NCBI GenBank assembly: GCA_964633195.1
Contig: CAZWFL010000010.1
Location: 21,732 to 85,731 of the forward strand
DNA length: 64,000 bases
Source of the DNA: an uncultured Rikenellaceae bacterium
GTDB lineage: Bacteria; Bacteroidota; Bacteroidia; Bacteroidales; VadinHA17
Direction: 5' to 3'
The notes under the pieces: model-generated
Databases searched by the model: none
What the model saw: the letters and a program-made list of their open reading frames with translations, nothing else
Told to the model about the DNA's origin: nothing
Shown: positions 36,420-59,938 of the stretch, piece by piece
Layout of the letters: each line of letters opens with the position of its first letter
Numbering within the stretch: position 1 is the stretch's first letter
Translations under genes and position numbers: made by a program

Positions 36420-36463
36420 ATGTGTTTTTGGATGTTCGACAACAAATATAGTTTAAAAAAAGT

Positions 36464-37501: not shown

Positions 37502-37699
37502 TTAACCTATTACTAACCTGAAAAACCTGTTGCCTATGTAATAAACAAATGAAAAAAAAGGGAAGCGATTGGAGCGCTTCCCTGGGAACAATGCTAAGTT
37601 ACTATCGTTTTATAATAACCTAACTTAAAACTTTGCGAATTTATGGAAAAAATTTATGATTTAAGGGTCATTTGCGACCCTATTCTAAAAAAACTAATC

Positions 37700-41137: not shown

Positions 41138-41154
41138 TAATATAAATTAAAAAT

Positions 41155-42888
41155 ATGAAAAAATTACTTATATCATTGATGCCAATATTATTTTTATTAG
41201 GCTCGTGTGAAGATATTTTTGAAAGGACGCCATTGGATAAAATCAGTGATTCTGATGTATGGCAACAGGAAGCATTAATGCGTGCATATCTGACAGATAT
41301 TTATGCCCGTTTACCCTGGCAATCATATGACATGAACGATCGTTATACTGATTTTGGAACAGAACGATTTGGTAATTTTACCAGTATTACACAAGGCACT
41401 GTTTCCAGGACAAGTGAGAGTATGGCTTATTGGGACTATGTGATTATAAGAGACATGAATGTCTTCCTCGAAAAAATGGTTGACTCTCCTGTTTCTGAGC
41501 AGGTGAAAAAGCAAATGGAAGGTGAGGTAAGAACGATGAGGGCATGGGTATATTTTGAGAAACAAAAGCGGTATGGGGGTGTGCCTTTAGTAGATGTTGT
41601 TCTTGATCCATTTGCTGAGATCGATGAAAAATATTCAAAGCGGACGTCTGAAGAGGCCATTGCCGATTTTATTGATTCGGAATTTACTACAGCAATTAAT
41701 CTTTTAAAAGACGACCACACCTCATTAGGCCAGATTAATAAATGGGTTGCTTATGCATTTAAAGCCAGAGCTAACTTGTGGGCAGCCTCAATAGCAAAGT
41801 ATAGTACAGTTCAAATTGATGGGATTGTTGGAATTCCTCCCGGAAGAGCAGACGAGTTTTACAGGAAAGCGGCAGATGCAGCGGATGCCATTATTAAATC
41901 CGGCAAGTATTCTCTTTTTAATAAGATTCCTGACAGAACAGAGAATTATTACAGATTATTCTTTGAGGACGGTGATAATCCGGAAGTAATTTTTGCCAGA
42001 TTATTTGATGGAGTGAATATAGGTCATGCCTATACACAAAGCAATGTTGCCACAAGATACTCATCAGGCCAGGGATCTTCGCTTCATCCCACACTAGAAC
42101 TTTGCCATTTTTATGAAAATATAGATGGCACTACAGACCAGCCTGAAATTGGTCCGGACCATTTATATGAAAATGGATTGGAGCTGTTTTCTAAAAAAGA
42201 TCCAAGACTCCGGGCAACAGTGTTCTTTCAGGGAGAAGAATTCAGAGGTGATATAATTCGTACCTATGATGGATTAGATCCAAGTCCGGTTCCAGATCCG
42301 GGTAGCATTATAGCAGACTGGACATATTCCTACCAGGGATTTCCCTCGGTAGGAGAAGACAGTAGACTACAGCAAAGTCATAACCGAACCCAATCCGGCT
42401 TCTTAACACGAAAATACATAAGAGATTTTGGGGATATTTTTGAATCCGCTATAGATGTTATCAGCTGGAAATATTTCAGATTGGCGGAAATGTATCTGAC
42501 TATAGCTGAAGCCGAATTTGAGTTGGGGAACATGCCTCAAGCAGTTGCCGCTTTGAACATGACCCGCGAAAGAGCAGGAATAAGTTTGGTTGATGAGACA
42601 ACGATTACACTTGACCACATAAGAAAAGAAAGGTCGGTTGAATTTGCGTGGGAAGGTTTTCGTTGGTGGGATTTAAGGAGATGGCGAACTGCTGAAAGTA
42701 TTCTGCAACGCGATATACCAGTTCAGGGACTAAGGATTATTTTGCATTATGAAACCGGTAAATTTTACTTTTTACCTCTTGATGCAGAATCTTATACACG
42801 TATTTTCAAACCAGAGCATTATTATAATCCAATAACTGAACAGCGAATAGAGAATAATCATAATTTGGTTGAAAATCCTCTTTATTGA
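41155..42888 (+). CDS. SusD/RagB-family nutrient-binding lipoprotein
   Basis: 577 aa. Lipobox LLGSC. SusD-typical C-terminal region (ERSVEFAWEGFRWWDLRRW). Immediately follows SusC. Confidence 0.9.
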   Translation: MKKLLISLMPILFLLGSCEDIFERTPLDKISDSDVWQQEALMRAYLTDIYARLPWQSYDMNDRYTDFGTERFGNFTSITQGTVSRTSESMAYWDYVIIRDMNVFLEKMVDSPVSEQVKKQMEGEVRTMRAWVYFEKQKRYGGVPLVDVVLDPFAEIDEKYSKRTSEEAIADFIDSEFTTAINLLKDDHTSLGQINKWVAYAFKARANLWAASIAKYSTVQIDGIVGIPPGRADEFYRKAADAADAIIKSGKYSLFNKIPDRTENYYRLFFEDGDNPEVIFARLFDGVNIGHAYTQSNVATRYSSGQGSSLHPTLELCHFYENIDGTTDQPEIGPDHLYENGLELFSKKDPRLRATVFFQGEEFRGDIIRTYDGLDPSPVPDPGSIIADWTYSYQGFPSVGEDSRLQQSHNRTQSGFLTRKYIRDFGDIFESAIDVISWKYFRLAEMYLTIAEAEFELGNMPQAVAALNMTRERAGISLVDETTITLDHIRKERSVEFAWEGFRWWDLRRWRTAESILQRDIPVQGLRIILHYETGKFYFLPLDAESYTRIFKPEHYYNPITEQRIENNHNLVENPLY

Positions 42889-43867: not shown

Positions 43868-45181
43868 ATGAGAAAAATTTTGTTTTTATTATCATGTTTG
43901 CTTTTAATAATGAGCAACCCGCTGGTTATCAGTGGTCAGGAAACAAAGCCTCGCGTTATTGTAATGACAGATGGAGAAATTGATGATCGCAGTTCGATGG
44001 TTCGGTTTTTGCTTTACACGAATGATATTGAACTTCTTGCGATAATTCAAACAAGTTCAGTATACCAACGCCAGGGATGGAGCAAGGATAAATGGATTGA
44101 AGCACAAATTGACGCTTACGAGAAGGTTTACCCAAATTTAAAAATTCACGACCCTTCCTATCCGACTGCGGATTACTTAAGGAGCGTATTATATATTGGG
44201 GATGAAGTTGAGGAACATCTGGTTGTGGATCGGGCATCTAACAGGCGGTTCCCGGGGATGGACCCGGTAATTGATCCGGCAGGCTGGCCAGACACACCAG
44301 GGTCAGACAAGATCGTGGAGATTTTGTTGCAAGATGATCCCAGGCTAGTTTATATTCAGGCATGGGGAGGGGGTAATACGGCTGCGAGAGCATTTCATAA
44401 GTTGAAGACCCAATATCCGGCTGATTATGACAGAGCTGTATCGAAAGCCGTCATGTATCACATCTGGTATCAGGATGGGGCAGGAAATTATATTGAAAGA
44501 TACCATCCAAAAGTGACAATGGTGCTCAGTTACTTTTTTTCTGGAACATGGGATTACGGTAGTCAGAGATATACATTTCAGTTTGTTGAAGATTATGTAA
44601 AGAATAATCACGGGCCCCTTGGAGCTCTTTATCCACAGGATTACATAAGTGAGGGAGATTCACCGGCGTATCTGTATTCGATAGCCAATGGACTCAGGAG
44701 TCATGAGAATCCGACGTATGGAGGATGGGGAGGTCGTTTTTACAATGTCTATGGAAACGTATACAGGGATGTTTCGAAAGGGTCTTATCTTAAGTGGGTT
44801 GAATTTGCGAACAGGGATTTTGAGGCAAGAATGAAGTGGTGTGTTGCTAACAAGTATGAAGATGCTAATCACAGGCCGGTAGTAAAAGTAAAAGGAGAAT
44901 TGGACAGGACTGTACGATCAGGGGAGCCTGTGGAATTGTTCGCAGAGATCAATGATCCTGATGGACAACGCACTTCTCCTTTGTGGTGGCAGTTCAAAGA
45001 GGCCGGAACATACGATGGAATGGTAGAAACTTCTGATCCAAGGGCCAATAATATTAGTTTTGTTGCTCCGTATGTTGCCAGGCCGAGTACGATCCATATG
45101 ATTATAGAGGCTTCAGACCGGGGCAGTCCAAGCCTTACATCATTTAAAAGGGTAATAATTACGGTTATACCAGCATTTTAG
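43868..45181 (+). CDS. DUF1593 protein (nucleoside-hydrolase-like N-domain plus Ig-like C-domain), secreted; paralogue A
   Basis: 437 aa with a signal peptide. Motifs PRVIVMTDGEIDDRSS, AWGGGNT, EGDSPAYLY, GGWGGRF, RDFEARMKWC and DANHRPV are shared with four other ORFs in the locus. Confidence 0.8.
   Translation: MRKILFLLSCLLLIMSNPLVISGQETKPRVIVMTDGEIDDRSSMVRFLLYTNDIELLAIIQTSSVYQRQGWSKDKWIEAQIDAYEKVYPNLKIHDPSYPTADYLRSVLYIGDEVEEHLVVDRASNRRFPGMDPVIDPAGWPDTPGSDKIVEILLQDDPRLVYIQAWGGGNTAARAFHKLKTQYPADYDRAVSKAVMYHIWYQDGAGNYIERYHPKVTMVLSYFFSGTWDYGSQRYTFQFVEDYVKNNHGPLGALYPQDYISEGDSPAYLYSIANGLRSHENPTYGGWGGRFYNVYGNVYRDVSKGSYLKWVEFANRDFEARMKWCVANKYEDANHRPVVKVKGELDRTVRSGEPVELFAEINDPDGQRTSPLWWQFKEAGTYDGMVETSDPRANNISFVAPYVARPSTIHMIIEASDRGSPSLTSFKRVIITVIPAF
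44252..44829. repeat. 578-bp tract 100% identical to 57962-58539
   Basis: Line-by-line comparison at a fixed offset of 13710 nt. First mismatches are at 44251/57961 (c/t) and 44830/58540 (a/g). The flanks are clearly diverged. Confidence 0.95.
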
Positions 45182-45302: not shown

Positions 45303-46841
45303 ATGAACAAATTAATTTACAGCATAATTATTGTTGCCTTTTTCGTATCCTGTAATCAGAAAAATGCAAATATTGAACAGTGGGATGTCTTTGAGATCAC
45401 ACTAAACGGGCCATCTGAGGGAAATCCCTACATGGAGGTTGAGTTGTCAGCGGTTTTCACCGGTAGTGGTGAAAATATTACCGTCCCCGGGTTTTATGAC
45501 GGGAACGGGACCTACCGTATCAGGTTTTCCCCACCCGCTCAGGGTAACTGGAAATACCGGACTTCAGGCAATGTTCCTGAACTTATCGATAAAAAAGGGA
45601 AGTTCAGTTGTATAAAACCTTCCGGTAAAAACCATGGTCCCGTGAAGGTAGTCAATACTTATTACCTGGAATATGCCGACGGAGCGCCTTTCTATTCTGT
45701 CGGGACGACTGCCTATCAGTGGACAAGTGTAAAGCAGAGTATTCAGGATAAAACAATTGAAACCCTTTCTGAGGCTCCTTTCGACAAGATGAGGATGTGT
45801 GTTTTCCCAAAATGGTACAGATACGGGAACGATACTGAGCCATGGATCTACCCATATAAAAGAGAAGAGGGAAAGAATGATTTCACACAGCCCAATTATG
45901 AATTCTTTCAAAACTTCGACAGGAGGGTTAAACAACTTATGGAAATGGGAATTGAAGCCGATGTGATATTGTTCCATGAATATGACAACTGGGGTTATTT
46001 TGAGATGGGAAATGAGATGAATGAAAGATATGTGCGTTACATGATTGCCCGGATTTCTGCTTACAGGAACGTTTGGTGGTCGCTCGCAAATGAATGGGAT
46101 ATCCCAAGACTTAAAGTCGCAATAGACTGGGAGGGGATCGGAACGCTTCTCCATGATGAGGATCCTCATCAGCGTTTACGCGGGATACACAACTGGCATG
46201 GTTCAGAAGATCATTTCTATGATCATTCACGTCCATGGATCACCCATGTAAGTGCCCAGACTTCGCAGTTTTATAATGCAATCAAGTGGCGGGAGCAGTA
46301 CAATAAGCCTCTGCTCTTCGACGAGATGCGCTACGAAGGGGATGTCCCGAGCGGGTGGGGTAACCTGACCGCTCAGGAGATGACCAGTTATTTCTGGATG
46401 GCCGGGCTGAGCGGAGGCTATGGAACTCATGGCGATACCTTCAGTAACAACTCCGACGATTCTACGGAGGTACGCTGGTGGGGAAAAGGAGGGACTCTTC
46501 CCGGGAAGAGCCCTGAAAGGATCAGTTTCTTCAGGTCGGTTATGGAACAGGCTCCGGTTACAGAGATGAAGCCTGAGCTTATAGATAATGGCGATCCGGC
46601 AAACCTGAATAATAATATCCATGTTTTTTCAAAGGCGGGAGAGTATTACCTGGTCTATGTTGCAGATGCGGATATGAATATTGAGGTTAATCTTTCAGGT
46701 GATACTGATTATAATCTGGATATTATAGACACCTGGGACATGAAAATTGTCAGCCAGTCTACTGTTAAGCAAGGGGTATATAATTACTTAACGATATTAC
46801 CCTATACTGCATTAAGATTTCAAATCAACGGGGATGAGTAA
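45303..46841 (+). CDS. DUF5060/DUF4038-type glycoside hydrolase (GH140 apiosidase-like), lipoprotein; copy 1
   Basis: 512 aa. N-terminal beta-sandwich WDVFEITLNGPSEGNP...FYDGNGTYRIRF, then a TIM-barrel-like region with MRMCVFPKWY and WSLANEWD (clan GH-A acid/base-type NE). Confidence 0.65.
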   Translation: MNKLIYSIIIVAFFVSCNQKNANIEQWDVFEITLNGPSEGNPYMEVELSAVFTGSGENITVPGFYDGNGTYRIRFSPPAQGNWKYRTSGNVPELIDKKGKFSCIKPSGKNHGPVKVVNTYYLEYADGAPFYSVGTTAYQWTSVKQSIQDKTIETLSEAPFDKMRMCVFPKWYRYGNDTEPWIYPYKREEGKNDFTQPNYEFFQNFDRRVKQLMEMGIEADVILFHEYDNWGYFEMGNEMNERYVRYMIARISAYRNVWWSLANEWDIPRLKVAIDWEGIGTLLHDEDPHQRLRGIHNWHGSEDHFYDHSRPWITHVSAQTSQFYNAIKWREQYNKPLLFDEMRYEGDVPSGWGNLTAQEMTSYFWMAGLSGGYGTHGDTFSNNSDDSTEVRWWGKGGTLPGKSPERISFFRSVMEQAPVTEMKPELIDNGDPANLNNNIHVFSKAGEYYLVYVADADMNIEVNLSGDTDYNLDIIDTWDMKIVSQSTVKQGVYNYLTILPYTALRFQINGDE

Positions 46842-46872: not shown

Positions 46873-47889
46873 ATGATTTTAGTTAATAGTTATTCTTTGG
46901 CAATTGCCTTCTTTATTGTCACAATGATTTGTTGGGGTTCATGGGCAAATACGCAGAAACTTGCAGCCAGAACATGGCGTTTTGAGCTATTCTACTGGGA
47001 TGTAGTTACCGGATTGTTGATTTTTTCAATTTTAGCCGCATTTACCCTGGGGTCGTTTGGAAGCGAAGGACGCACATTTATTGAGGACTTACGGCAGGCA
47101 AATATTTCAAGTATTGGCTCAGCCATTCTTGGAGGTGTCGTATGGAACCTGGGTAATCTTTTTCTTGTTGCAGCAATAGCAGTGGCCGGAATGTCGGTAG
47201 GATTCCCTATCGGGGGCGGAATAGCCTGGATTCTTGGTATCATCGTGAATTATTTACTTGTAGTGATGCGTTCAGGAAGATCAGGAGATAATGATCTGCT
47301 TCTCTTTACTGGAGTCATAGCAATAATTGGTGCCATAATTCTGAGTATGCTTTCATACAAGCGTCTGGCAAGTGAGAACAAAAAACCAACAACAAAAGGA
47401 ATATTGCTCTCAGTGTCTGCGGGGTTGCTCATTGCATTTTTTTACGGTCTGGTAGTGAATTCTCTCGATCCGCAATTCGTCAATGGTGGTGGTGGGAATC
47501 TAACTCCTTACTCGGGCGCGTTTTTCTTTGCTCTGGGGGCTTTTCTCAGCACATTTATTTTCAACCCGGTTTTCATGGCTAAACCAGTGCAGGGTGATCC
47601 TGTAAAGATTGGGGAATATTTTAAGGGATCAGTTAAAACTCATTCAATCGGCATTTTGGGTGGAGTAATATGGATGACAGGAATGGTTGTAAGTTTTATG
47701 TCGGTGGGTGCTGCTGGACCTGCAATCTCATACGCACTGAGTAATGCAGCTCCAGTTGTTGCCATCTTATGGGGTGTATTTGCATGGAAAGAATTCAAAG
47801 AAGCTCCAAAAGGTACCAACCAGTTGTTGTTAATCATGTTTGTGCTTTTCCTTATAGGTTTAGTTTTAATTACTATGGCCAAAGCTTAG
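46873..47889 (+). CDS. DMT-superfamily sugar permease (GRP/RhaT-like)
   Basis: 338 aa, about 10 TM in two homologous halves, each ending in a WG...W(K)E(F)K-like segment (AILWGVFAWKEFKE). No signal peptide. Confidence 0.55.
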   Translation: MILVNSYSLAIAFFIVTMICWGSWANTQKLAARTWRFELFYWDVVTGLLIFSILAAFTLGSFGSEGRTFIEDLRQANISSIGSAILGGVVWNLGNLFLVAAIAVAGMSVGFPIGGGIAWILGIIVNYLLVVMRSGRSGDNDLLLFTGVIAIIGAIILSMLSYKRLASENKKPTTKGILLSVSAGLLIAFFYGLVVNSLDPQFVNGGGGNLTPYSGAFFFALGAFLSTFIFNPVFMAKPVQGDPVKIGEYFKGSVKTHSIGILGGVIWMTGMVVSFMSVGAAGPAISYALSNAAPVVAILWGVFAWKEFKEAPKGTNQLLLIMFVLFLIGLVLITMAKA

Positions 47890-47939
47890 AGCCTGGCATT
47901 TAATAAGATACTATTATAGTCTGGCAATAGCGCATACTT

Positions 47940-48806
47940 ATGATTAAAACGGAAGACAAATACATTTCTCTTAAGCTAACAGCGGAAAAAATTCGCAAAC
48001 GAGTTATTGAAATAATTTACCGGGCAAAATCTGGACATACAGGAGGCTCCCTTTCAATAATTGATATTCTTACGGTTTTGTATTTTAATATATTGAGAAT
48101 TGATCCTAAGTATCCAGAGATGCCAGATCGCGATCGATTTATTCTGAGCAAGGGTCATAGTGTGGAAAGTTTGTTTTGCATTCTCGCCGAAGCGGGGTTT
48201 TTAAGTAATGATGTGTTGATGACATACGGAACTTATAAATCCAAATTAGCTGGCCACCCTACTGTAAATGTTCCTGGAATTGAAATATGTAGCGGTGCCC
48301 TGGGACATGGACTATCGGTTGGAGCAGGTATGGCTTTAAGCGCCAGGATGGATAAGAGGGATTGGTGGGTATTTGTGCTCATGGGTGACGGAGAACAAAA
48401 TGAAGGTTCTGTTTATGAAGCTGCAATGGCTGCCAGACACTATCAGCTTGATAATCTGATAGCAATTATAGACAGGAATAATTTACAAATAAGTGGCAAC
48501 ACTGAAAACATTATGACACTTGAACCGATTGATAAACGATGGGAGGCTATGGGGTGGGAGGTGTTAAAAACCAACGGGCATGATATTGGTGCCATACTCT
48601 ATGCTTTTTCACTTTTAAAGATTAAAGCAGGAAAGCCTCACCTTTTAATTGCAGATACAATTAAAGGTAAAGGAATTTCATTTATGGAAAATGATCCCAA
48701 ATGGCATCATGGTGTGCCAAATGAGAACCAGTATCATTTGGCAATAAAGGAGATAGATGATCGGATCGTACACTTAACAGCTTTATTAGAACAGGAAAAT
48801 GAGTGA
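47940..48806 (+). CDS. Transketolase, N-terminal (TPP-binding) subunit
   Basis: 288 aa. GHTGGSLS and the TPP motif LMGDGEQNEGSVYEA. The stop overlaps the start of the C-terminal subunit gene by 8 nt. Confidence 0.9.
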   Translation: MIKTEDKYISLKLTAEKIRKRVIEIIYRAKSGHTGGSLSIIDILTVLYFNILRIDPKYPEMPDRDRFILSKGHSVESLFCILAEAGFLSNDVLMTYGTYKSKLAGHPTVNVPGIEICSGALGHGLSVGAGMALSARMDKRDWWVFVLMGDGEQNEGSVYEAAMAARHYQLDNLIAIIDRNNLQISGNTENIMTLEPIDKRWEAMGWEVLKTNGHDIGAILYAFSLLKIKAGKPHLLIADTIKGKGISFMENDPKWHHGVPNENQYHLAIKEIDDRIVHLTALLEQENE

Positions 48807-49731
48807 TCCTTGCAGAAAAGTTTTTACAGATACATTGTTGCAAAAGGCTTACACGGACGGGAATATAGTGGTAGTAACAACTGACGCCCGGGGGTCGGTC
48901 ACTTTAAACCGGTTTGCAGATGAATTACCCAACCAATTTATAGAAGTTGGTATAGCTGAACAGAATGCAATCGGTGTTGCAGCAGGATTGGCTGCCAGTG
49001 GAAAAAAGGTTTTTGTGTGTGGCCCTGCCTGTTTTTATTCTGCACGGGCTCTTGAGCAGATTAAAGTTGACGTGGCTTATTCGAATAAACCCGTTAAGAT
49101 AATTGGTGTTAGCGGTGGCGTGAGTTATGGGGCTCTTGGAAGTACTCATCACAGCCTGCACGACATTGCAGTGATGCGTACTTTTCCAGGATTAAATGTT
49201 TTTCTTCCTTGTGATAACACACAAACCCGTGAATTAATTGTTCAGATGATCAACTACCGGCATCCGGCCTATATAAGAATGGGAAGAGGTGCAGTGCCTG
49301 ATGTATATAGTGATGGTAACTGTAATTTAACTGTGGGGAGAGCAAATATCCTGTTGGACGGTGATGATCTTACTATTATTGGGACCGGAGAAACTGTATT
49401 TTATTGCCTGGAAGCTGGAAAGCTTCTGCAGGCCAAGGGTATTTCAGCAAGGATTCTGGACATGCACACGATAAAACCAGTTGACAGGTTGGCGGTTATA
49501 AATGCCGCAAAGGAAACAGGGCGCATTATTACTGTCGAGGAACATAGCATTTTTGGGGGACTGGGTTCGATTGTGGCTGAGATAGTGGTTCAAAATTTCC
49601 CGGTTCCGGTAAGGATCATCGGCATTCCTGATGAAAACGCAGTGCATGGTTCCTCCTCAGAAATCTTCAGGCATTACGGAATAACCAGTGAGAACATTGC
49701 AAATACTGCAGAGAAGCTAATTAACAATTAA
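48799..49731 (+). CDS. Transketolase, C-terminal (pyrimidine-binding) subunit
   Basis: 310 aa. FIEVGIAEQNAIGVAAGLA and HHSLHDIAVMR. Translationally coupled to the N-terminal subunit gene. Confidence 0.9.
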   Translation: MSDPCRKVFTDTLLQKAYTDGNIVVVTTDARGSVTLNRFADELPNQFIEVGIAEQNAIGVAAGLAASGKKVFVCGPACFYSARALEQIKVDVAYSNKPVKIIGVSGGVSYGALGSTHHSLHDIAVMRTFPGLNVFLPCDNTQTRELIVQMINYRHPAYIRMGRGAVPDVYSDGNCNLTVGRANILLDGDDLTIIGTGETVFYCLEAGKLLQAKGISARILDMHTIKPVDRLAVINAAKETGRIITVEEHSIFGGLGSIVAEIVVQNFPVPVRIIGIPDENAVHGSSSEIFRHYGITSENIANTAEKLINN

Positions 49732-49740
49732 AAACCAGTT

Positions 49741-51222
49741 ATGCAAAAACACATATTATCAATTGATCAAAGTACGTCAGCGACCAAAGCCATACTCTTT
49801 GATAGTAAGGCACAAGTTGTGGCAAGGATGTCAAAAGAGCATAAACAGTTTTATCCCAGGCCGGGCTGGGTAGAACATGACCCTGATGAGATCTTAACAA
49901 ATACCTTCAGGATCATTAATGAAATTTGTAATTCCAATAAAATTATAAATATTGAATCTTTAGCTATTACCAACCAGAGGGAGACTGTTGTAGTTTGGGA
50001 CATTACAACGGGGAAACCTGTTTATAATGCGATCGTTTGGCAGTGTAACCGGGGTGCTGATCGATGCAGGAGACTTATGGAAGATGGTTGGGGAAAAGCG
50101 ATTCAGGATAAAACCGGATTAATTATTGACCCATATTTTTCAGCTACAGGAATATGCTGGATACTGGATAATGTACCTGGGGCAAGAGAAAAGGCTGAAA
50201 AAGGGCTATTGCGGTTTGGTACAACAGACAGTTGGTTAATCTGGAATTTAACTAATGGCAAGGTACATGCAACAGACTATACCAATGCTTGCCGCACAAT
50301 GCTATTTAACATAAATAACTTGTCATGGGACAATGAAATTATGGATGAATTAGGCATCCCGGTTATCATGGCTCCGGAAGTAAAGTATTCAGATGATCTG
50401 TTTGGAAGCACCACTGCAGGGGGAGCATTTAAAGTTCCCATTCCTGTGTCCGGGGTATTGGGAGATTCACATGCTGCACTTTTTGGCCAGCTTTGTCTTA
50501 CTCCCGGCATGGCCAAGGCAACTTATGGTACTGGTTCTTCCATAATGATGAACATAGGAGATAAACCACTTGAGAGTCCGGAAGGATTGGTAACATCGAT
50601 AGGCTATGGGGTGGATAAATCCATTGCCTATGTGTTTGAGGGCAATATACATTATACAGGGGCTACGATCAAGTGGTTGCAAGATGATTTGCAGCTCATC
50701 AAAGATGCTGGTGAAACCGAGATTTTAGCCACTTCAGTTGATTCCACTGAGGGTGTTTATCTGGTGCCGGCTTTCACCGGACTTGGAGCTCCATACTGGG
50801 ACAATGAAGCAAGAGCAATCATTTGTGGTATGTCACGTGGGACTAAAAAAGCTCACGTGGTTCGCTCAGCACTGGAAGCTATTGCCTATCAGGTGAAAGA
50901 CCTGGTTGATCTGATGATCTCCCAGGCCGGTATTGAACTTAAAGAATTAAAGGTTGACGGTGGAGCGACACGCAATGAATTTTTAATGCAGTTTCAAACC
51001 GACATTATAAAGACAAAAGTTGTACGATCGGATATTGAAGAGATATCGGCTCTTGGTTCAGCTTTTGCAGCAGGTCTTGCTACAGGTATCTGGAAAGATA
51101 TCGAAGAAATTAAGAGACTTTATGTTACCGGGAAAATCTATTCAGGCCAGATGACAGATGATGAGATTGATAGCTTATATCATGGTTGGAAAATTGCAGT
51201 TAATAGAACCCAGTTTAAATAG
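49741..51222 (+). CDS. FGGY-family carbohydrate kinase (glycerol-kinase-like)
   Basis: 493 aa. IDQSTSATKAILFD, ITNQRETVVVWD, DPYFSATGICWIL, GDSHAALFGQ, VDGGATRNEFLMQFQTDI. Confidence 0.85.
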   Translation: MQKHILSIDQSTSATKAILFDSKAQVVARMSKEHKQFYPRPGWVEHDPDEILTNTFRIINEICNSNKIINIESLAITNQRETVVVWDITTGKPVYNAIVWQCNRGADRCRRLMEDGWGKAIQDKTGLIIDPYFSATGICWILDNVPGAREKAEKGLLRFGTTDSWLIWNLTNGKVHATDYTNACRTMLFNINNLSWDNEIMDELGIPVIMAPEVKYSDDLFGSTTAGGAFKVPIPVSGVLGDSHAALFGQLCLTPGMAKATYGTGSSIMMNIGDKPLESPEGLVTSIGYGVDKSIAYVFEGNIHYTGATIKWLQDDLQLIKDAGETEILATSVDSTEGVYLVPAFTGLGAPYWDNEARAIICGMSRGTKKAHVVRSALEAIAYQVKDLVDLMISQAGIELKELKVDGGATRNEFLMQFQTDIIKTKVVRSDIEEISALGSAFAAGLATGIWKDIEEIKRLYVTGKIYSGQMTDDEIDSLYHGWKIAVNRTQFK

Positions 51223-51251
51223 ATATAAATTAAACCTTAAAATTCAATATT

Positions 51252-52664
51252 ATGAAAAAGAAACAAACATTTGGTGTGATTATTGCCACCAGGAATATCT
51301 TCAATTTTCAACTTGCTGTTGAAGCTAGAAAGAAGGTATTATCAAAGCTTGAGAGTATGGGTTTTGATGCAATAATTTTGCCGGAGAAAGAAACCCCTAC
51401 CGGAAATATTGAAGGATACTCCGATGCAGTTAAATGTGCTGAGCTTTTTAGGAATAATGCTAATCTAATTGAGGGTATAATAGTTATCTTACCAAATTTT
51501 GGTGACGAACTTGGTGTGGTAAATACTATCAGTCTGAGTGGGCTGAAGGTGCCGGTTCTGGTTCAGGCCTGCGATGATGACAATGATAAAGTTGATGTGA
51601 AAAGCAGGAGGGATGCTTTTTGCGGTAAGCTATCGGTGTGTAATAATTTATATCAATATGGAATAAAATTTACTGATACTAAATACCACACCTATTCTCT
51701 CGATAGCAGTGAGTTTACTATGGATTTGTTAAAATTTGCAGGTGTATGTCGTGTAGTAAAAGGTTTTAAAGGTTTGAGGGTTGGGGCAATTGGTACCCGT
51801 CCCGGTGGTTTTCAAACCATGCGTGCAAGTGAGAAACTGCTTCAGAAGTCTGGGATAACATTAGTGCCGGTTGATATGTCTGAGATAATAGCTGCTGCAA
51901 ATAAGATGAAGGACGATGAGCAGGTAGTAGTAGATAAAGTAAAAGCTATACAGGAATACGGTACTTGTGCTACGGTATCAAAGGAAAAGATTGCTCGTCA
52001 GGCACGCTTTGGAGTAGCGGTTGAAAATTGGATAGCTGATAATAATATTAACATTTCAGCACTTCAGTGCTGGGAATCGATTGAAAGAAATTACGGATGT
52101 GCTGCCTGTGTTACCATGAGCATGATGGGAGAAAAACTGATGCCCTCAGCCTGTGAGGTTGATATTGCAGGTTCTATTGCCATGTATGCATTAGCCCTCG
52201 CTGCCCAGACGCCTTCTGCATTACTGGACTGGAATAATAATTTTGGAGAAGATCGAGATAAAGTTGTATGTACACATTGCAGCAATTACCCAAAATCATT
52301 TTTCCAGAACGACATTGAGTTAGGCAGCCTTGATGTACTGGGAACTGTATTGGGGAGTGAGGACACATTTGGTGCAGTAAAGGGTAAAGTTTCCCCCGGT
52401 GACATGACCTATTTTAGAGTATCAACAGATGATCAGAAGGGATTTATACGTACTTATCTTGGTGAAGGTATCATTACTGATGACCCTTATGGTATGGACG
52501 GTGGAATTGCCGTTTGTCAGATACAAAATCTGCAAAAGCTTATGAAATTCATGTGTAAATACGGCTTTGAACATCATGTAGGAATGGTTCGGGGTCATGT
52601 AGCTGAAATTATTGAAGAAGCTATAGGCAATTATATTGGATGGGAACTTTATCGTCATGAATGA
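51252..52664 (+). CDS. L-fucose/L-arabinose-isomerase-family sugar isomerase
   Basis: 470 aa, cytoplasmic. RVGAIGTRPGGFQTMR, ACEVDIAGSIAMYAL and EHHVGMVRGH resemble fucose-isomerase-family proteins. Confidence 0.7.
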   Translation: MKKKQTFGVIIATRNIFNFQLAVEARKKVLSKLESMGFDAIILPEKETPTGNIEGYSDAVKCAELFRNNANLIEGIIVILPNFGDELGVVNTISLSGLKVPVLVQACDDDNDKVDVKSRRDAFCGKLSVCNNLYQYGIKFTDTKYHTYSLDSSEFTMDLLKFAGVCRVVKGFKGLRVGAIGTRPGGFQTMRASEKLLQKSGITLVPVDMSEIIAAANKMKDDEQVVVDKVKAIQEYGTCATVSKEKIARQARFGVAVENWIADNNINISALQCWESIERNYGCAACVTMSMMGEKLMPSACEVDIAGSIAMYALALAAQTPSALLDWNNNFGEDRDKVVCTHCSNYPKSFFQNDIELGSLDVLGTVLGSEDTFGAVKGKVSPGDMTYFRVSTDDQKGFIRTYLGEGIITDDPYGMDGGIAVCQIQNLQKLMKFMCKYGFEHHVGMVRGHVAEIIEEAIGNYIGWELYRHE

Positions 52665-52804: not shown

Positions 52805-54322
52805 ATGAAAAGAATAGTTTTGGCTGTATTATTACTGCAGAGCACGGTAATATTTTCCCAAAGCAGTATTGAAAAATGGAAAGTATTTGAAATAACGCTT
52901 AAAGGACCTTCTTCCGGGAATCCTTTTCAGGATGTGACCCTGACAGCAACCTTTTCTAACGGTGTGACAGAAACTGATATTACAGGGTTTTACGATGGGA
53001 ATGGTATATTCAAGATCAGGTTCATGCCAGCGGAAGAAGGGAAATGGAATTACATCACTAAAAGCAATCAGAAAGCGCTCAACAATAAAAAGGGGCAATT
53101 TACATGCATACCCCCTACTGGTAACAATCATGGTCCGGTGATTGTTAAAGATACTTTCAACTTTGCTTATGCTGATGGCACACCACATTATTCGTTTGGA
53201 ACCACAGCGTATGCGTGGATACATCAGGGTGACAGCCTGGCACAACTTACCCTCCAGACTTTATCAAAAGGGTATTTTAACAAGATGCGTATGTGTATCT
53301 TCCCAAAAGATTATAATTGGAACAAGAACGAACCTTTGCTTTATCCCTTCGAAGGACAACCAATCACAGACTGGGATTATTCCCGATTCAATCCTTCGTA
53401 TTTCCGAAATGTCGAAAAACGGATTTCACAGTTAGACTCGTTAGGAATTGAAGCTGACCTTATTGTTTTTCATCCATACGACCGATGGGGATTTGCAAAT
53501 ATGGACAGAGAAACCGACGAGAGATACATCAGGTATGTTGTTGCCAGATTTGCAGCTTTTAAAAATGTATGGTGGAGTATGGCTAATGAATACGATTTTA
53601 TGAAGAGTAAGAACTTGGACGACTGGGATAGATTTATTGACCTGTTTGCACAGATAGATCCTTACCATCGCTTACTTGGGATTCACAACGGAAGAGTCTG
53701 GTATGACCACACAAATCCTTTAATAACCCATGCAAGCATTCAAAACGAAGATACCTATAATGCAAGAGAATACCGGAATAAGTACAAAAAACCTGTCGTC
53801 TTCGACGAATGCCGTTACGAGGGAACTATTCCCAGTTCCTGGGGAAACATTACTGCTGAGGAGATGGTAAATAAATTTTGGTATGGATTCACTAATGGCG
53901 GACATGTCGGACATGGTGAAACCTATCTTACTGAGAATCCTTTGGTCTGGCCAGATAAATCATCTGACGTATTGTGGTGGTCGAAGGGAGGAATTTTAAG
54001 GGGAGAAAGTCACCCCAGGATTAAGTTCTTAAGGGAGATTGTTGAATCGGCGCCAGGTTATCTCGGCCTTACACCATATTTCAGGGGAACGCGGCGGTTT
54101 ACTGTTGTTAGCTATAAGGATGAATATTTTTTGGCATATTTCAGCCTCGATCAACCCAGAGCTACAATAATTACACTACCAAAGGGGAGAACCTATAAGG
54201 TCGATATTATTGATGCCTGGAATATGACCATACAGACCCTTAATGGCACATATAGTGGCAGGTGTATGATCGAATTGCCGGGGAAACCGTTTACAGCTTT
54301 GCGTATTATAAGCACTCCTTAA
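52805..54322 (+). CDS. DUF5060/DUF4038-type glycoside hydrolase (GH140 apiosidase-like), secreted; copy 2
   Basis: 505 aa. Collinear with 45303..46841 (WKVFEITLKGPSSGNP, FYDGNGIFKIRF, MRMCIFPKDY, WSMANEYD). Clearly diverged from copy 1 but alignable throughout, judged by eye. Confidence 0.65.
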   Translation: MKRIVLAVLLLQSTVIFSQSSIEKWKVFEITLKGPSSGNPFQDVTLTATFSNGVTETDITGFYDGNGIFKIRFMPAEEGKWNYITKSNQKALNNKKGQFTCIPPTGNNHGPVIVKDTFNFAYADGTPHYSFGTTAYAWIHQGDSLAQLTLQTLSKGYFNKMRMCIFPKDYNWNKNEPLLYPFEGQPITDWDYSRFNPSYFRNVEKRISQLDSLGIEADLIVFHPYDRWGFANMDRETDERYIRYVVARFAAFKNVWWSMANEYDFMKSKNLDDWDRFIDLFAQIDPYHRLLGIHNGRVWYDHTNPLITHASIQNEDTYNAREYRNKYKKPVVFDECRYEGTIPSSWGNITAEEMVNKFWYGFTNGGHVGHGETYLTENPLVWPDKSSDVLWWSKGGILRGESHPRIKFLREIVESAPGYLGLTPYFRGTRRFTVVSYKDEYFLAYFSLDQPRATIITLPKGRTYKVDIIDAWNMTIQTLNGTYSGRCMIELPGKPFTALRIISTP

Positions 54323-54462
54323 ATAGTTTTAAGCTGAATTAATTGAAAATATAAATTTTCATTCGAGGCCGAAAGAAAAATTAAGGAGTGCCTGGCCGAA
54401 CAGACCATAATTATTTAAAATACTGGTCGAGGGTTTGAGAGAATTATAAATTGGGATGGATT

Positions 54463-55920
54463 ATGAAAGATACTATATTAATATCTTGTTTTTCTCTGTT
54501 AATAAGCATCTTATTTATTAATTCCTGTAATTCAGTAAATACTGGAAAGCCACGCTTGGTTGTTTTAACTGACATCGGGGGTGATCCGGACGATATACAA
54601 TCTCTCCGGAGGTTATTGGTTTATGCAAATGAGTTTCGTATAGAAGGTTTGATTGCCACTGCAAAGAATACTCCCAGCCCTGGACGTACCTATGAGATCA
54701 GGACTGATATTATTTATCAGGCAATTGATGACTATGCAGAAATCCGCGATAACATTAATCAACATGCTCAGGTTTATCCTACTGCCGAATCACTGAGAGC
54801 TGTGGTTTTTGGTGGACAGGAAAACCGTGGTGTGGACAATCTTATTCCTGGTTTAGCAACACCTGGCTCACAGCATATTATTAAGAGAACCAATGCAAGT
54901 AAAGAACCTCTTTATATAGTTATATGGGGAGGCGCGCATGATCTTGCACAGGCATTACTGGATATGAGAAGCACCTACTCAACAAAAAAAGCAGAACAAT
55001 TTATCAGGAAATTGCGAGTGTATGCGATTGGCGACCAGGATGGATGGAATAATGTTTTTTCTATGGGGACAGGAGAGTGGATACGTAAAAATTTCCCTGA
55101 ATTGAGATATGTTGAAACCTCACCTCCCTGGATACATAATCAGACAGCAAGTTTTCGGGGAATGTATCAGAATGATTCCAGGGGGGGCGACCATCCTGGA
55201 TTGCCATTAGTAAGGCCTGGAATAGAGTTGATGAACGATCATACCTGGATACTTGAAAATGTATCGGCATGGGGGCCACTGGGAGAAGGCTATCCTCCCG
55301 AAGTAAACCAAAATCCGAATAGCGAAAGGAACACAAAAGGGGTTAAAGAAGGAGATACTCCATCGTGGTTTTTTGTACTTCCACATGGCCTGAATGATCC
55401 GGAAAACCCCGAATGGGGGGGATGGGGAGGAAGATTTGTACATCATACAGATGGATATTACACAGAAGCTGAAGATGATCACTGGTCAGGAGCAGATGAC
55501 GCCAGTCTTCGACGTAAATGGACAGTAGCCCGCTGGCGGGAAGCGTACCAGAATGATTTTGCTGCACGGATGCGCTGGTGTTTACTTTCCTATAAAGAAG
55601 CAAACCATAATCCTGTTGCTATTATTAATAACAATAGCAGAGACCCGATTCTGAAACTAAAGGTTAAACCCGGGGAAAACATAAAATTAGATGCCTCTGC
55701 AAGCTATGATCCTGACGGAGATAATATAACCTTTAACTGGTGGATCTATAACGAAATCTCTTCTGCCAAGGTTATCTTATCCAATAACACAGAACCAGTA
55801 TCAGATATAAGTGTTCCTGTATCCGCGACCAAAGGAGAAATTCATTTAATTCTGGAAGTGAAGGATGATGGAAAGCCTGAATTGTATTCGTACAGAAGGA
55901 TAATATTGCAAATAAAATAA
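54463..55920 (+). CDS. DUF1593 protein, lipoprotein; paralogue B (TDIGGDPDD class)
   Basis: ATG 54463 gives MKDTILISCFSLLISILFINSC. Motifs PRLVVLTDIGGDPDDIQS, IWGGAHD, EGDTPSWFF, GGWGGRF, NDFAARMRWC, EANHNPV, DPDGD. Confidence 0.8.
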   Translation: MKDTILISCFSLLISILFINSCNSVNTGKPRLVVLTDIGGDPDDIQSLRRLLVYANEFRIEGLIATAKNTPSPGRTYEIRTDIIYQAIDDYAEIRDNINQHAQVYPTAESLRAVVFGGQENRGVDNLIPGLATPGSQHIIKRTNASKEPLYIVIWGGAHDLAQALLDMRSTYSTKKAEQFIRKLRVYAIGDQDGWNNVFSMGTGEWIRKNFPELRYVETSPPWIHNQTASFRGMYQNDSRGGDHPGLPLVRPGIELMNDHTWILENVSAWGPLGEGYPPEVNQNPNSERNTKGVKEGDTPSWFFVLPHGLNDPENPEWGGWGGRFVHHTDGYYTEAEDDHWSGADDASLRRKWTVARWREAYQNDFAARMRWCLLSYKEANHNPVAIINNNSRDPILKLKVKPGENIKLDASASYDPDGDNITFNWWIYNEISSAKVILSNNTEPVSDISVPVSATKGEIHLILEVKDDGKPELYSYRRIILQIK

Positions 55921-56023: not shown

Positions 56024-57430
56024 ATGAATGCTTTTCATTACCTTTTGATAATAATATTACTGCAATTAGAATCCGGAGTTTCCCCACATGGTGCCATTCA
56101 ACCGTATCGGAATAACCCCTGGTATTGGGAGTATAAAGGTGAACCAATTCTGTTGAGAGGTGCGAGTGACGAAGATAATCTTTTTCAGTGGACAGGCAGG
56201 AAGTTAACTGAGCACCTGGATCTTCTTTCGTCGGTTGGTGGCAATTACCTGCGAAACACTATGTCTGATCGTGATACGGGAAATGTCTATGCATTTGGTC
56301 AGACTGGTAACAACCTTTATGACCTCGAGCGATGGAACGACGAATACTGGGATCGTTTGACTTTTTTCCTCGATGAAACATCAAAGCGCGATATAATTGT
56401 TCAGCTTACTCTCTGGGATCAATTTGACCTGAGCACATCGCATCCATGGTTTAACAACATCAATATTAAGAAGGACGTAATAAACAACAGGGCTGCTTTT
56501 TATAAGACTGTGGAAACTAATAATAAAGAAGGTCTTTACTATCAAGGCAAGTTTATTGATAAGCTTCTGTCAATTACCCTGAAATATGATCACATCTTGT
56601 ACAATATCAACAACGAGAGCAGTGAAGGCGCGATCTGGGAAAATTACTGGGCAAGATATATACAGAAGACAGCAGAAAATTTGAGGCGGAATGTGTGTAT
56701 CACAAGTATGCAGTTTGACCCTACTAACTCTGTAAGGCATGTAATGACATTCCGGAACTTTTACAGCTTTGTAGAAATATCTCAGAATAATCAGGATTCA
56801 AGGGGAGGAAGAGGGCATGCTCATTGGGAAAACATAATGAATTGGAGGAAGAAGATAGTTTCCCAAAATACCGGCCCTATGCCAATGAATAATGAAAAGG
56901 TCTACGGAGGGAAAGATGGAGTAAACTACTCAGCTGGCACAGAAACAGAGGCAATAAACCGGTTTTGGCGAAATATTTTTGCAGGATGTGCCGCAAGTCG
57001 GTTTCACCGTCCTGCAGAACCGAGAGTCTGGGGTGCAGGCCTGAACGATCGTGTTCAGATAAACCTGAAAGCTATGGATATGCTGCTTGAAGAGTTGGAT
57101 ATATTTTCTGCTTCACCTCATAACGATCTTTTAATACATACCGTAGCAGCCACAGCCACTTCTATGGAAGCATACGTAACCGCAGAAATTGGAAGGCAGT
57201 ATGCAGTTTACTTTCCGCCAGGGAATAATATGGTCGGACTTGATCCATGGATATATGTGAATAAATTGAAAATTCGCTGGCTGGACATAGATGAGTTGAA
57301 ATGGTCAGATCCCGAAGTAGTAAATGTACAGTGGGAAGGAAGTAGAAATGAATGGGGAGACCGGGGCATGATCATTTTGAAGACTCCAAGTAATCGTCCT
57401 TATGTTGCATTAGTTGAGGTCGGAGAATAG
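56024..57430 (+). CDS. Orphan protein, possibly a clan GH-A-like TIM-barrel glycoside hydrolase
   Basis: 468 aa. The N-terminus NPWYWEYKGEPILLRGAS resembles the entry strand of DUF4038/GH5-like enzymes. YNINNESSEG is a possible acid/base NE. No family recognised. Confidence 0.3.
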   Translation: MNAFHYLLIIILLQLESGVSPHGAIQPYRNNPWYWEYKGEPILLRGASDEDNLFQWTGRKLTEHLDLLSSVGGNYLRNTMSDRDTGNVYAFGQTGNNLYDLERWNDEYWDRLTFFLDETSKRDIIVQLTLWDQFDLSTSHPWFNNINIKKDVINNRAAFYKTVETNNKEGLYYQGKFIDKLLSITLKYDHILYNINNESSEGAIWENYWARYIQKTAENLRRNVCITSMQFDPTNSVRHVMTFRNFYSFVEISQNNQDSRGGRGHAHWENIMNWRKKIVSQNTGPMPMNNEKVYGGKDGVNYSAGTETEAINRFWRNIFAGCAASRFHRPAEPRVWGAGLNDRVQINLKAMDMLLEELDIFSASPHNDLLIHTVAATATSMEAYVTAEIGRQYAVYFPPGNNMVGLDPWIYVNKLKIRWLDIDELKWSDPEVVNVQWEGSRNEWGDRGMIILKTPSNRPYVALVEVGE

Positions 57431-57574
57431 ACTTTGTTATTAATGAAATATACAGAGCAGAGATTGGCCCAAAGTTCTAAGCTCATCAAATCAGCGAAGG
57501 GATGTAACTAAATTGAATATAACTAAGGAAATATGTTAAATAAAAATTCATATGAAATGAAGAAAATGTTAAAA

Positions 57575-58900: not shown

Positions 58901-59023
58901 ACTACTCAATTAAGGCTTTTTTTGACCCTTATTGTAGTTTTAAATGCTTTTCGACCGTTTTTGACAACCAGATCATTAGGTCAATTATATAAGATTGTTC
59001 CGTTTTATTATATAATAATAATT

Positions 59024-59938
59024 ATGGAGTTAATAAATAAAAGAATGGTTCATGCCATCTATATAGTAATCTTTCAGTTGCTTTTACCGACCAACACATT
59101 ATGCCAAAATGCAGATGATTTTAGCAAAATTGTAATAACCAAAGAACAACGGTTTGGTTACATGACGTGGAAAATCCAAGCAGCAAATGGAATTTGGCAT
59201 TACGAAATAGAAAAATTAGAAAATGTTGAGCCCGGTACTGGCTTTAGTTCGGCCATAGATCAATCCGGAAATGATTGGATAGGCAATGATTGTGTAGGCA
59301 GAAGAGAATGGCGAGGGTGGCCTAATTTTGGATCTGATGGTTTTGGACACCCTTGCCGCGGTGGCAGTGGCAAATCCAGATGGTTGGATTCAGATGGCAA
59401 TCAGATTGAATTTGAGGAAAAATATGTCGGAGAATATCTCATTCTGGAATCGTGGAATGAAAAATTCCGACTATGGTATCATTTTTTCCCGAGTCATATT
59501 GCTATTCAAATACTTGAAGCTCACGATCTTTATTCGTTCTTATGGGAAGGCCCCATAGCCGGAGAAATGAACCTCGATCAGCAATACTATGTGCTTGAGG
59601 ACGGGAAGAAACGAAGACTTCCATATAATACCGGTTTAGGTTATTTAGAACCAGAGTTTGGACGTAATTTCCCTTCATCTTTCTTTTATTTCCTTGATGA
59701 TAATGCGGAACAAATTGTATATATAGCTGTTAAGGATCAGAGTGAAGGTGGTGATGAGGGTTGGTGTCAACCAAATAACATGGTAATATTTAGTTTTGGC
59801 CGTGAAGATGATAAACGTGCACTGTCAGGAACTGATGCCATATGTGTTTTTGGTTTTCTAAACAAGAATATTGGACATGAAGAAATAAAGAGTTTTATTA
59901 TGGATCGCCTGGATAATCCATTTCAGAAAGGAAATTAA
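59024..59938 (+). CDS. Orphan secreted protein, no recognisable family
   Basis: The track ORF starts at TTG 58922. ATG 59024 gives MELINKRMVHAIYIVIFQLLLPTNTLCQ (signal-like). About 304 aa; no motif I can assign. Confidence 0.4.
   Translation: MELINKRMVHAIYIVIFQLLLPTNTLCQNADDFSKIVITKEQRFGYMTWKIQAANGIWHYEIEKLENVEPGTGFSSAIDQSGNDWIGNDCVGRREWRGWPNFGSDGFGHPCRGGSGKSRWLDSDGNQIEFEEKYVGEYLILESWNEKFRLWYHFFPSHIAIQILEAHDLYSFLWEGPIAGEMNLDQQYYVLEDGKKRRLPYNTGLGYLEPEFGRNFPSSFFYFLDDNAEQIVYIAVKDQSEGGDEGWCQPNNMVIFSFGREDDKRALSGTDAICVFGFLNKNIGHEEIKSFIMDRLDNPFQKGN

Follow-up and report, generated by a model that had tools for sequence, protein, structure and literature searches.

A predicted D-apiose uptake and catabolism operon within a polysaccharide utilization locus of an uncultured Rikenellaceae bacterium

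A 64,000-nucleotide (nt) stretch of contig CAZWFL010000010.1 from an uncultured Rikenellaceae bacterium (hereafter the window) encodes, at 46873-52664, five tightly packed forward-strand genes (open reading frame (ORF) list) that very probably constitute an operon for D-apiose uptake and catabolism by the non-oxidative transketolase pathway (MetaCyc PWY-8089). In the proposed scheme, secreted enzymes of the surrounding polysaccharide utilization locus (PUL) would release apiose or apiosides from a plant glycan (rhamnogalacturonan II (RG-II), apiogalacturonan or apiosylated glycosides) and a permease of the drug/metabolite transporter (DMT) superfamily would import the apiose. An isomerase of the FucI/AraA fold would then convert D-apiose to apulose, a GlpK-derived kinase would phosphorylate one hydroxymethyl arm to give apulose-4-phosphate, and a split thiamine pyrophosphate (TPP) enzyme would move the C1-C2 glycolaldehyde unit to glyceraldehyde-3-phosphate (G3P), yielding xylulose-5-phosphate and dihydroxyacetone phosphate (DHAP). 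We infer the substrates of each step, the ligand of the permease and the apiose-liberating enzyme of the PUL. The chemistry of the pathway is already known, and a non-oxidative transketolase route for D-apiose comprising ApsI, AplK and AptA/AptB was reportedly described by Carter et al. in 2018; this locus varies on it in the DMT permease, the embedding in a PUL controlled by an extracytoplasmic function (ECF) sigma factor, and the strongly GlpK-like kinase. On this reading, PULs of Bacteroidota from the environment and from the gut (Phocaeicola, Prevotella and Bacteroides spp.) would hold the complete predicted route of apiose catabolism.

The five-gene block and the known apiose clusters

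The block had originally been described as a module of five genes without signal peptides between secreted hydrolase-like genes, and its coordinates, its families and the 8-nt overlap of the two transketolase genes were all reproduced. Intergenic gaps in the catabolic block are 31, 50, -8, 9 and 29 nt. The four enzymes have no signal-like hydrophobic stretch at their N-termini, and the flanking genes at 45303-46841 and 52805-54322 have lipoprotein or signal-peptide-like N-termini. Neither an aldolase nor an epimerase is encoded within the block, in agreement with the gene content first noted. A promoter and terminator scan of 43.5-56.1 kb gave counts no better than those of shuffled sequences and no intergenic terminator inside the block. 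The genes, in order, are:

46873-47889, + strand: DMT-superfamily sugar permease (RhaT/GlcU-like), 338 amino acids (aa); Pfam/NCBIfam
47940-48806, + strand: AptA-type transketolase subunit A (TK-A; TPP-binding N-terminal half), 288 aa; Transketolase_N, 171 bits
48799-49731, + strand: AptB-type transketolase subunit B (TK-B; Pyr and C-terminal domains), 310 aa; Transket_pyr and Transketolase_C
49741-51222, + strand: predicted AplK-type (apulose) kinase, a GlpK-derived FGGY kinase, 493 aa; FGGY_N and FGGY_C
51252-52664, + strand: ApsI-type predicted D-apiose isomerase, AraA/FucI fold, 470 aa; Fucose_iso_C, 96 bits

In Escherichia coli SE15, aplK is ECSF_RS02700, aptA is RS02710 and aptB is RS02715; strains with this cluster grow on D-apiose and K-12 does not, and the cluster resembles that of Pectobacterium minus apsI and plus two oxidoreductases (PMC13001218). 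According to PMC13001218, Carter et al. had already named Bacteroides and Clostridia among the degraders of apiose. The window kinase is 40% identical to SE15 AplK, and TK-A and TK-B are 43% and 37% identical to E. coli AptA and AptB, respectively. Comparison of the kinase and both transketolase subunits with apulose-pathway proteins gives 37-43% identity, and the kinase and TK-B share pocket signatures with their counterparts. Among PDB entries, the best counterparts of the solute-binding protein (SBP) encoded in the E. coli cluster are 5ibq/4ry0 (270 bits), which we take to be an SBP of Rhizobium etli from the Gerlt/Almo programme, with 5IBQ as its apiose complex. Apulose kinase itself has a database record as EC 2.7.1.233 (UniProt Q6D5T8).

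Synteny extends well beyond these strains. A scan with an isomerase alignment, taking one genome per species, found relatives in at least 592 species (58-88% identity); the 80 loci that it yielded (58-81% identity) span at least six phyla. Of these loci, 68 encode TK-A, 67 encode TK-B and about 67-69 encode an AplK-type kinase, and many of the remaining loci are short contigs. Carriers include Paludibacter, Prolixibacteraceae and, from the gut, Bacteroides, Phocaeicola, Prevotella and Alistipes, and extend to Spirochaetes, Chloroflexota, Planctomycetes, KSB1 and Ignavibacteriales; Phocaeicola sartorii DSM 21941 and Prolixibacter bellariivorans are carriers available in culture. Partner families were ranked by unbiased clustering of all ORFs in the 80 loci: a DeoR regulator is present in 28, homologues of the window permease (47-72% identity) adjoin the enzyme genes in 21, Sde182_NH-like genes occur in 20 (36 copies), an SBP/ATP-binding cassette (ABC)/DUF2291 transporter set in 15-19, SusC in 12, a glycoside hydrolase (GH) family GH140 gene of canonical architecture (PF13204, 253 bits, plus Collagen_bind_2) in 6, and a DUF5060-type PF13204 protein in about 5-7, plus Monoglobus; GH28, GH78 and GH43 recur. 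Gut Phocaeicola, Bacteroides and Prevotella have the exact gene order of the window, and Prolixibacter has the order kinase, isomerase, TK-A, TK-B, permease. This variation in gene order across loci argues that the module is kept together by selection and not by descent alone. Homology to the apiose cluster, shared active-site substitutions and synteny therefore all favour the route put forward in the original prediction, in which an aldose isomerase, a ketose kinase and a two-subunit transketolase act in turn on D-apiose.

We note a further recurrent neighbour, a stand-alone 3,4-dihydroxy-2-butanone-4-phosphate synthase (RibB-like; PF00926, 256 bits) encoded between the glycosidase and tkA genes in 14 loci of gut Bacteroidales (L045:4861-5475 and 13 others). 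A ribB gene (L091:1881-2507) also lies within the transketolase/kinase cluster of Rhizobium. Its presence could reflect inherited synteny or a role in branched-sugar chemistry.

Enzyme families and active-site signatures

The kinase and TK-B carry pocket substitutions whose signatures were derived in the present analysis and not from the literature. Solved glycerol kinases read GDQQAALFG and YGTG(C/G)FM at positions where the window kinase reads GDSHAALFG and YGTGSSIM and E. coli AplK reads GDSHAALFG and YGTGSSVM; the pocket changes in the window kinase relative to GlpK are Q246S, Q247H, C269S and F270S (E. coli GlpK numbering). Phe270 of E. coli GlpK is a glycerol contact, and the smaller pocket wall left by Phe to Ser would fit a substrate that amounts to glycerol with a glycoloyl substituent at C2, that is, apulose. 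S246, H247, (S/T)269 and S270 are found in 71/71 kinases encoded beside isomerase and transketolase genes (67 in scan loci and 4 in L006 and L008-L010), and S246 and S270 occur also in the kinases of Rhizobium, Caballeronia and Monoglobus. A search of 1.84 billion proteins supplied 134 near-full-length kinase representatives, in which residues 246 and 270 covary (Q/F in 89, S/S in 38, mixed in 7). A neighbour-joining tree built on all alignment columns places all 111 S/S kinases, including those of the window and E. coli AplK, in one clade with no GlpK inside, a grouping that is not robust to removal of the signature columns (see below). Since Phe270 and the D245-Q-Q motif are absent, the window kinase is on its sequence not classed as GlpK.

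In the transketolase, subunit A retains conventional features. The TPP motif GDGEQNEG originally noted in this subunit was located at residue 149 (GDGEQNEG...NN), and His residues aligned with the catalytic His of human transketolase and of the split transketolase of Carboxydothermus hydrogenoformans are kept. Subunit B departs from the canonical motifs, which read ..tHaG....GEDGasHQ in the housekeeping split enzyme 6yaj and gsHcG....GEDGpsQ in human transketolase, against gvSgG....GALGstHH in the window and glNaG....GPLAstHH in AptB (that is, GVSGG..YGALG and GLNAG..YGPLA against THAG..GEDG). All 71 module TK-Bs have Leu at the position of the Asp (human D424, yeast D477), as do AptB and the window; at the position of the His (human H416, yeast H469), 66 of the 71 have Ser, like the window, and 5 have Asn; and the cofactor Glu is retained throughout (71/71). 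TK-Bs of Rhizobium, Caballeronia and Monoglobus carry the same Leu-type altered acceptor pocket, and both His and Asp are retained in human transketolase and 6yaj. In yeast and E. coli transketolase, this Asp forms a hydrogen bond with the acceptor aldose at its C2-hydroxyl, and the His contributes to binding of the substrate phosphate. Loss of both would be expected where the acceptor-side product is the ketone DHAP and not an aldose phosphate. At its active site, with Leu for Asp and Ser for His, TK-B does not group with housekeeping split transketolases, a grouping that the original prediction had named as contrary to the apiose reading. The presence of tpiA inside the Rhizobium transketolase/kinase cluster fits DHAP as product and G3P as acceptor. 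These residue signatures separate putative apulose kinases (D-S-H plus G-S-S) from GlpK, and AptB-type subunits (Leu for the acceptor Asp) from ordinary transketolases.

The isomerase connects the window to a further set of apiose clusters. It is 44% identical, at 100% coverage, to the isomerase of aptAB clusters in Rahnella, Klebsiella and Sodalis, whose records also carry an AptA 78-79% identical to that of E. coli. These clusters have the order SBP, DUF2291, ABC, ABC / regulator / transketolase, transketolase, 'fucose isomerase', FGGY kinase, share their SBP/DUF2291/ABC transporter and their regulator with E. coli, and have the isomerase gene between aptB and the kinase gene. A Rahnella-type cluster is therefore the E. 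coli cluster plus one isomerase, which matches the Pectobacterium-type distinction stated in PMC13001218. When the window isomerase was searched against plasmids with tblastn, only four strong matches were obtained (44-48% identity over the full length), and the next-best plasmid matches fell to 23-26% identity. The fourth strong match is a plasmid of Chondrinema litorale (Bacteroidota) that encodes the isomerase, TK-A and TK-B, then SBP/DUF2291/ABC, then a kinase named GlpK by the Prokaryotic Genome Annotation Pipeline (PGAP), and is a bridge between the enterobacterial and Bacteroidota versions. The original prediction had left two options, an orthologue or a non-orthologous replacement that would itself be new. 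By sequence the window isomerase appears to be an orthologue-like member of the enterobacterial apiose-cluster family, and with 44% full-length identity to that family the novelty of a replacement falls away. The FucI/AraA-fold family, which at least 592 species carry under generic names only, is likely to be the ApsI family.

An AlphaFold2 (AF2) model of the isomerase (predicted local distance difference test (pLDDT) 86.7, predicted TM-score (pTM) 0.90) gave Foldseek TM-scores of 0.79-0.81 to AraA and 0.72-0.75 to FucI/D-AraI at 10-13% identity, and the enzyme is accordingly assigned the three-domain AraA/FucI fold. By sequence, it has no match in the PDB, and hhalign against E. coli AraA gave a probability below 1% and no usable alignment for mapping catalytic residues; the acidic and His residues invariant in the family (E302, D304, H342, E440, H441 and H442) are candidate catalytic residues. 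The isomerase step is plastic. In Monoglobus pectinilyticus a 26%-identity isomerase heads a module of isomerase, TK-A, TK-B, 'glycerol kinase' and DUF5060 glycosidase, and a distant homologue in C. butyricum does not head such a module; across clusters the step is filled by two FucI-like subfamilies or by pairs of short-chain dehydrogenases/reductases (SDRs; E. coli, Rhizobium and Caballeronia). M. pectinilyticus (L094, NZ_OY725736.1 97588-103819) is a human-gut pectin specialist of the Bacillota.

The permease matches Pfam Ureide_permease (82 bits) and Sugar_transport, with weak NCBIfam matches to RhaT/GlcU, and has about 10-11 hydrophobic segments. These assignments agree with the transporter being a DMT permease and not an ABC system, as first proposed, and its place in the block suggests a D-apiose importer across the inner membrane. 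An apiose-type SBP/ABC system takes the place of the DMT permease in about 20 other loci.

Annotation of the kinases deserves separate mention. The TIGR01311 GlpK 'equivalog' model scores Bacteroidota AplK-type kinases above its cutoff (for example, 49741-51222), and the AplK-type copies L010:19579-21078 (Chondrinema) and L094:10204-11691 (Monoglobus) carry the PGAP name 'glycerol kinase'. Judged by their residues, the naming of such kinases as GlpK, in which the NCBIfam model mislabels the Bacteroidota copies, appears to be a systematic misannotation, detectable by D-S-H / G-S-S in place of D-Q-Q / G-x-F.

The surrounding PUL and candidate apiose-releasing enzymes

Upstream of the block lie genes for an ECF sigma factor (start at 35688), a FecR anti-sigma factor (36464), SusC (37643) and SusD (41155; all by Pfam), followed by a small DUF3823-like gene, an Sde182_NH-like gene and a glycosidase-like gene of DUF5060-PF13204-DUF5605 architecture. 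Downstream are a second such glycosidase gene, four further Sde182_NH-like genes, an FG-GAP protein gene and two ORFs without an assigned family. Neighbouring SusC-like and SusD-like genes, a dedicated regulator and glycan-active enzymes together identify the region as a PUL. Its features outside the catabolic block are:

35688-42888, + strand: PUL regulatory and uptake core, comprising ECF sigma, FecR anti-sigma, SusC-like TonB-dependent transporter and SusD-like protein; Pfam
43868-45181, + strand: Sde182_NH-like (PF07632/DUF1593) secreted protein, one of five PUL paralogues; Pfam
45303-46841, + strand: secreted lipoprotein-type glycosidase-like protein, DUF5060-PF13204-DUF5605, candidate apiose-releasing enzyme; Pfam
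52805-54322, + strand: second secreted glycosidase-like protein, DUF5060-PF13204-DUF5605, 44% identical to the 45303-46841 paralogue; Pfam
54451-55920, 57533-58900, 60057-61559 and 62367-63812: further DUF1593 paralogues; Pfam

The PUL is compositionally distinct from the genes upstream of it. Guanine-cytosine content drops at the PUL start, from 0.43-0.49 (window 1-35000) to 0.35-0.43 (36000-64000), and the upstream genes encode Nramp, MgtE-like and SSF transporters, a BNR sialidase-like protein, GH31 and an aldose 1-epimerase; horizontal acquisition could be the cause. The sequences at 43868-45181 and 57533-58900 are direct repeats, 89% identical, that bracket the whole catabolic module. In one metagenome contig (L003), window position 58789 is connected back to about 43856; either some strains carry a tandemly amplified unit of roughly 13.7 kb, or the junction is an artefact of assembly through the repeats. 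The ORFs at 56024-57430 (468 aa, signal-like N-terminus) and 58922-59938 (338 aa, TTG start) matched nothing in Pfam, and none of the 80+ related loci contains a homologue of either.

The two flanking glycosidase-like proteins are candidates for apiose release. The first (45303-46841) has the N-terminus MNKLIYSIIIVAFFVSCNQ. Both match PF13204 'Apiosidase-like', at 65 and 70 bits against a gathering threshold of 26.5. In a PDB search at E<=10 they matched 4n0r alone, an uncharacterised 'putative glycoside hydrolase' (338 bits for 45303-46841 and 410 bits for 52805-54322), and BT1012 was not matched. Their DUF5060-PF13204-DUF5605 architecture is not the PF13204 plus Collagen_bind_2 arrangement of canonical GH140, and hhalign of the pair against a canonical-architecture GH140-type protein gave a probability of 4%. 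An AF2 model from the two-sequence alignment was unusable (pLDDT 38.6). The second glycosidase (52805-54322) is 46% identical to the product of the DUF5060 gene that follows the kinase gene in Monoglobus pectinilyticus, and the 4n0r-type glycosidase travels with the module across phyla. Adjacency to two GH140-like genes had been offered as support for apiose as the substrate. The PF13204 match stands, and with BT1012 unmatched and the 4% profile probability the argument is weaker than stated. It is rescued indirectly by the canonical-architecture GH140 genes beside the module in six other loci, by the DUF5060 protein in Monoglobus and by the likeness of the E. coli cluster SBP to 5ibq/4ry0.

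The five PF07632/DUF1593 paralogues of the PUL all have secretion signals and share 31-40% mutual identity, except for one pair at 89%. Residues D35, D39, D40 and D264 are invariant among the paralogues, are conserved across 45 homologues and recall the Ca2+/ribose site of nucleoside hydrolases; under the apioside reading suggested below, a nucleoside hydrolase (NH)-like fold would grip the cis-2,3-diol of an apiofuranosyl unit via the conserved acidic (Ca2+-type) site, as nucleoside hydrolases grip ribose. The literature searched gives no function for DUF1593. Homologues are enriched around the apiose module (20 of the 80 loci), but the closest plasmid homologues (Chondrinema, Pantoea and Croceicoccus) are not beside apiose genes, and such unrelated contexts argue that the family is not apiose-specific. 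A role of DUF1593 proteins as apiosidases is possible but speculative. We tentatively suggest, as an idea with perhaps a modest chance of being right, that the PUL is a dedicated 'apioside' system in which the two DUF5060-PF13204-DUF5605 proteins and, more speculatively, the five DUF1593 proteins are new apiose-releasing glycosidases. The 4n0r-type PF13204 and DUF1593 proteins are accordingly nominated as candidate apioside-active enzymes. If this suggestion is correct, carriers would consume apiose excreted by model RG-II degraders, among them Bacteroides thetaiotaomicron, or would use apiogalacturonan or apiosylated plant glycosides directly.

Rival readings and comparison with known systems

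Several observations weigh against an apiose operon, beginning with the kinase. It scores above the TIGR01311 GlpK equivalog cutoff (629.8 versus 590.35), and at 553-560 bits against the solved E. coli and S. aureus GlpKs it scores higher than against E. coli AplK. It also keeps D133/Y135, where enterobacterial AplK has A/L (D133A/Y135L). When the five signature columns are removed, the exact S/S split appears in 8/100 bootstraps, and the S/S kinases separate into a main group of 46, to which the window kinase belongs, and a group of 8 on long branches, made up of the AplKs of E. coli and Rahnella and 6 representatives. For the isomerase, the equation of the enterobacterial FucI-family gene with characterised ApsI comes by inference from the cluster description in PMC13001218, and the family is named 'D-apiose isomerase' in no database, with generic names only in the Rahnella-isomerase and kinase searches and in six large clusters. 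Five loci (L032, L056, L059, L069 and L071) have isomerase homologues (58-66% identity) with no transketolase or AplK-type kinase within 10 kb. The flanking glycosidases are no more than distant relatives of the apiosidase BT1012 and are GH140-like at the level of the Pfam profile only, and the assignment of the Bacteroidota version as a whole is drawn from homology and context.

The GlpK resemblance was the chief challenge to the apiose reading, and comparison at residue level answers it. E. coli AplK itself scores 495 bits against TIGR01311, below the cutoff, and its sequence suggests that it is a GlpK offshoot. Most Bacteroidota module kinases keep D/N133 and Y135, and D133A/Y135L is probably lineage-specific rather than defining for AplK. 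Without the signature columns, the S/S kinases still cluster far from randomly: the signature needs 2 Fitch changes on the tree, where shuffled labels need about 34. The split of the S/S kinases may stem from a single origin obscured by long-branch effects or from convergence, and the pocket signature tracks the module under either origin. The proposal that the glycerol-kinase-like FGGY kinase fits an apulose kinase holds for the AplK pocket residues, but the single clade with enterobacterial AplK had the support of 8/100 bootstraps once the signature columns were removed. Some of the isomerase loci that lack transketolase carry a different FGGY kinase (23-26% identity), and the isomerase family may feed other routes too.

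The most serious rival retains the enzymatic logic and changes the sugar, to another rare branched-chain or short aldose, or gives the isomerase a broader or different aldose specificity. We consider it unlikely. It draws on the same dependence on homology and context, on the retained D133/Y135, on the isomerase being the most variable step (the 44%-identity family, the 26%-identity Monoglobus family or SDR pairs) and on PUL hydrolases, DUF5060-type GH and five DUF1593, that match no family of established specificity. Yet the pocket substitutions of the kinase and TK-B are the same in kind as those of the E. coli cluster associated with growth on apiose, about 15-20 loci pair these enzymes with apiose-type SBP/DUF2291 transporters, and genes of canonical GH140 architecture adjoin the module in 6. 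A chance juxtaposition of GlpK, a housekeeping split transketolase and an L-fucose/D-arabinose-type isomerase with a permease would agree with the GlpK-level score of the kinase, with the PGAP name of glycerol kinase for the Chondrinema and Monoglobus copies, and with the 260 bits of TK-A against housekeeping split transketolase 6yak. It is nevertheless highly improbable, given that the four enzyme genes occur together in differing orders across at least six phyla, that the kinase lacks the Phe270 and Q246/Q247 of solved GlpKs, that TK-B lacks the Asp and His of canonical transketolases (6yaj included), and that the isomerase has no detectable sequence similarity to AraA/FucI beyond fold; pocket residues and cross-phylum linkage largely refute the housekeeping reading. 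Scarcely credible is a sulfoquinovose 'sulfo-transketolase' pathway, in which a sulfoquinovose isomerase would act with a split transketolase cleaving 6-deoxy-6-sulfofructose. That pathway does use a split transketolase, and the sole NCBIfam match of the window isomerase is to the sulfoquinovose isomerase SftI, but the score of 112 bits is far under the cutoff of 700, the route needs no sugar kinase, and a Pfam scan of the surroundings found no sulfoquinovosidase, sulfonate reductase/dehydrogenase or exporter nearby. It was rejected on the SftI score, on these missing partner genes and on the AptB/AplK signatures of TK-B and the kinase. D-apiose catabolism remains the reading that we prefer, and the known systems nearest to it are compared here.

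The closest likeness is to the pathway of Pectobacterium, Rahnella, Klebsiella and Sodalis, which has the same four adjacent enzyme families and shares the TK-B Asp-to-Leu change and kinase S246/H247/S269/S270. The window differs from it in using a DMT permease where the enterobacterial clusters have SBP/DUF2291/ABC, in placing the operon in a SusC/SusD PUL with ECF-sigma/anti-sigma control where enterobacteria have a cytoplasmic sugar-binding regulator, and in a kinase with D133/Y135 retained and a much greater overall similarity to GlpK. The cluster of E. coli ST131/ST1193 (ECSF_RS02670-02715; PMC13001218) encodes homologues of AplK, AptA and AptB with the same active-site signatures, but has two SDR oxidoreductases and no isomerase, an ABC transporter, and no glycoside hydrolases nearby. 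The C. hydrogenoformans split transketolase (6yak/6yaj) resembles that of the window in its two subunits, TPP motif, subunit A His and subunit B cofactor Glu, and differs at two positions of subunit B, where the window has Ser in place of the His that binds phosphate and Leu in place of the Asp that binds the acceptor C2-OH. GlpK (TIGR01311; PDB 1bu6 and 3g25) has the same fold as the window kinase, about 50-55% identity-level similarity and conserved R83/E84/W103/Y135/D245, but the genomic partner of the window kinase is a transketolase and not glpF/glpD. The RG-II PUL of B. thetaiotaomicron, with the GH140 enzyme BT1012, is likewise a Bacteroidota PUL with PF13204-family glycosidases directed at a plant glycan. 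Its host releases D-apiose outward, whereas the window PUL contains the catabolic operon, and the window PUL also differs in the DUF5060/DUF5605 architecture of its PF13204 proteins, with BT1012 unmatched, and in its five DUF1593 genes. B. thetaiotaomicron and most tested Flavobacterium strains excrete D-apiose during RG-II degradation (bioRxiv 10.64898/2026.03.13.711244), and Bacteroidota with the operon could therefore exploit the excreted apiose as a public good, a testable cross-feeding niche.

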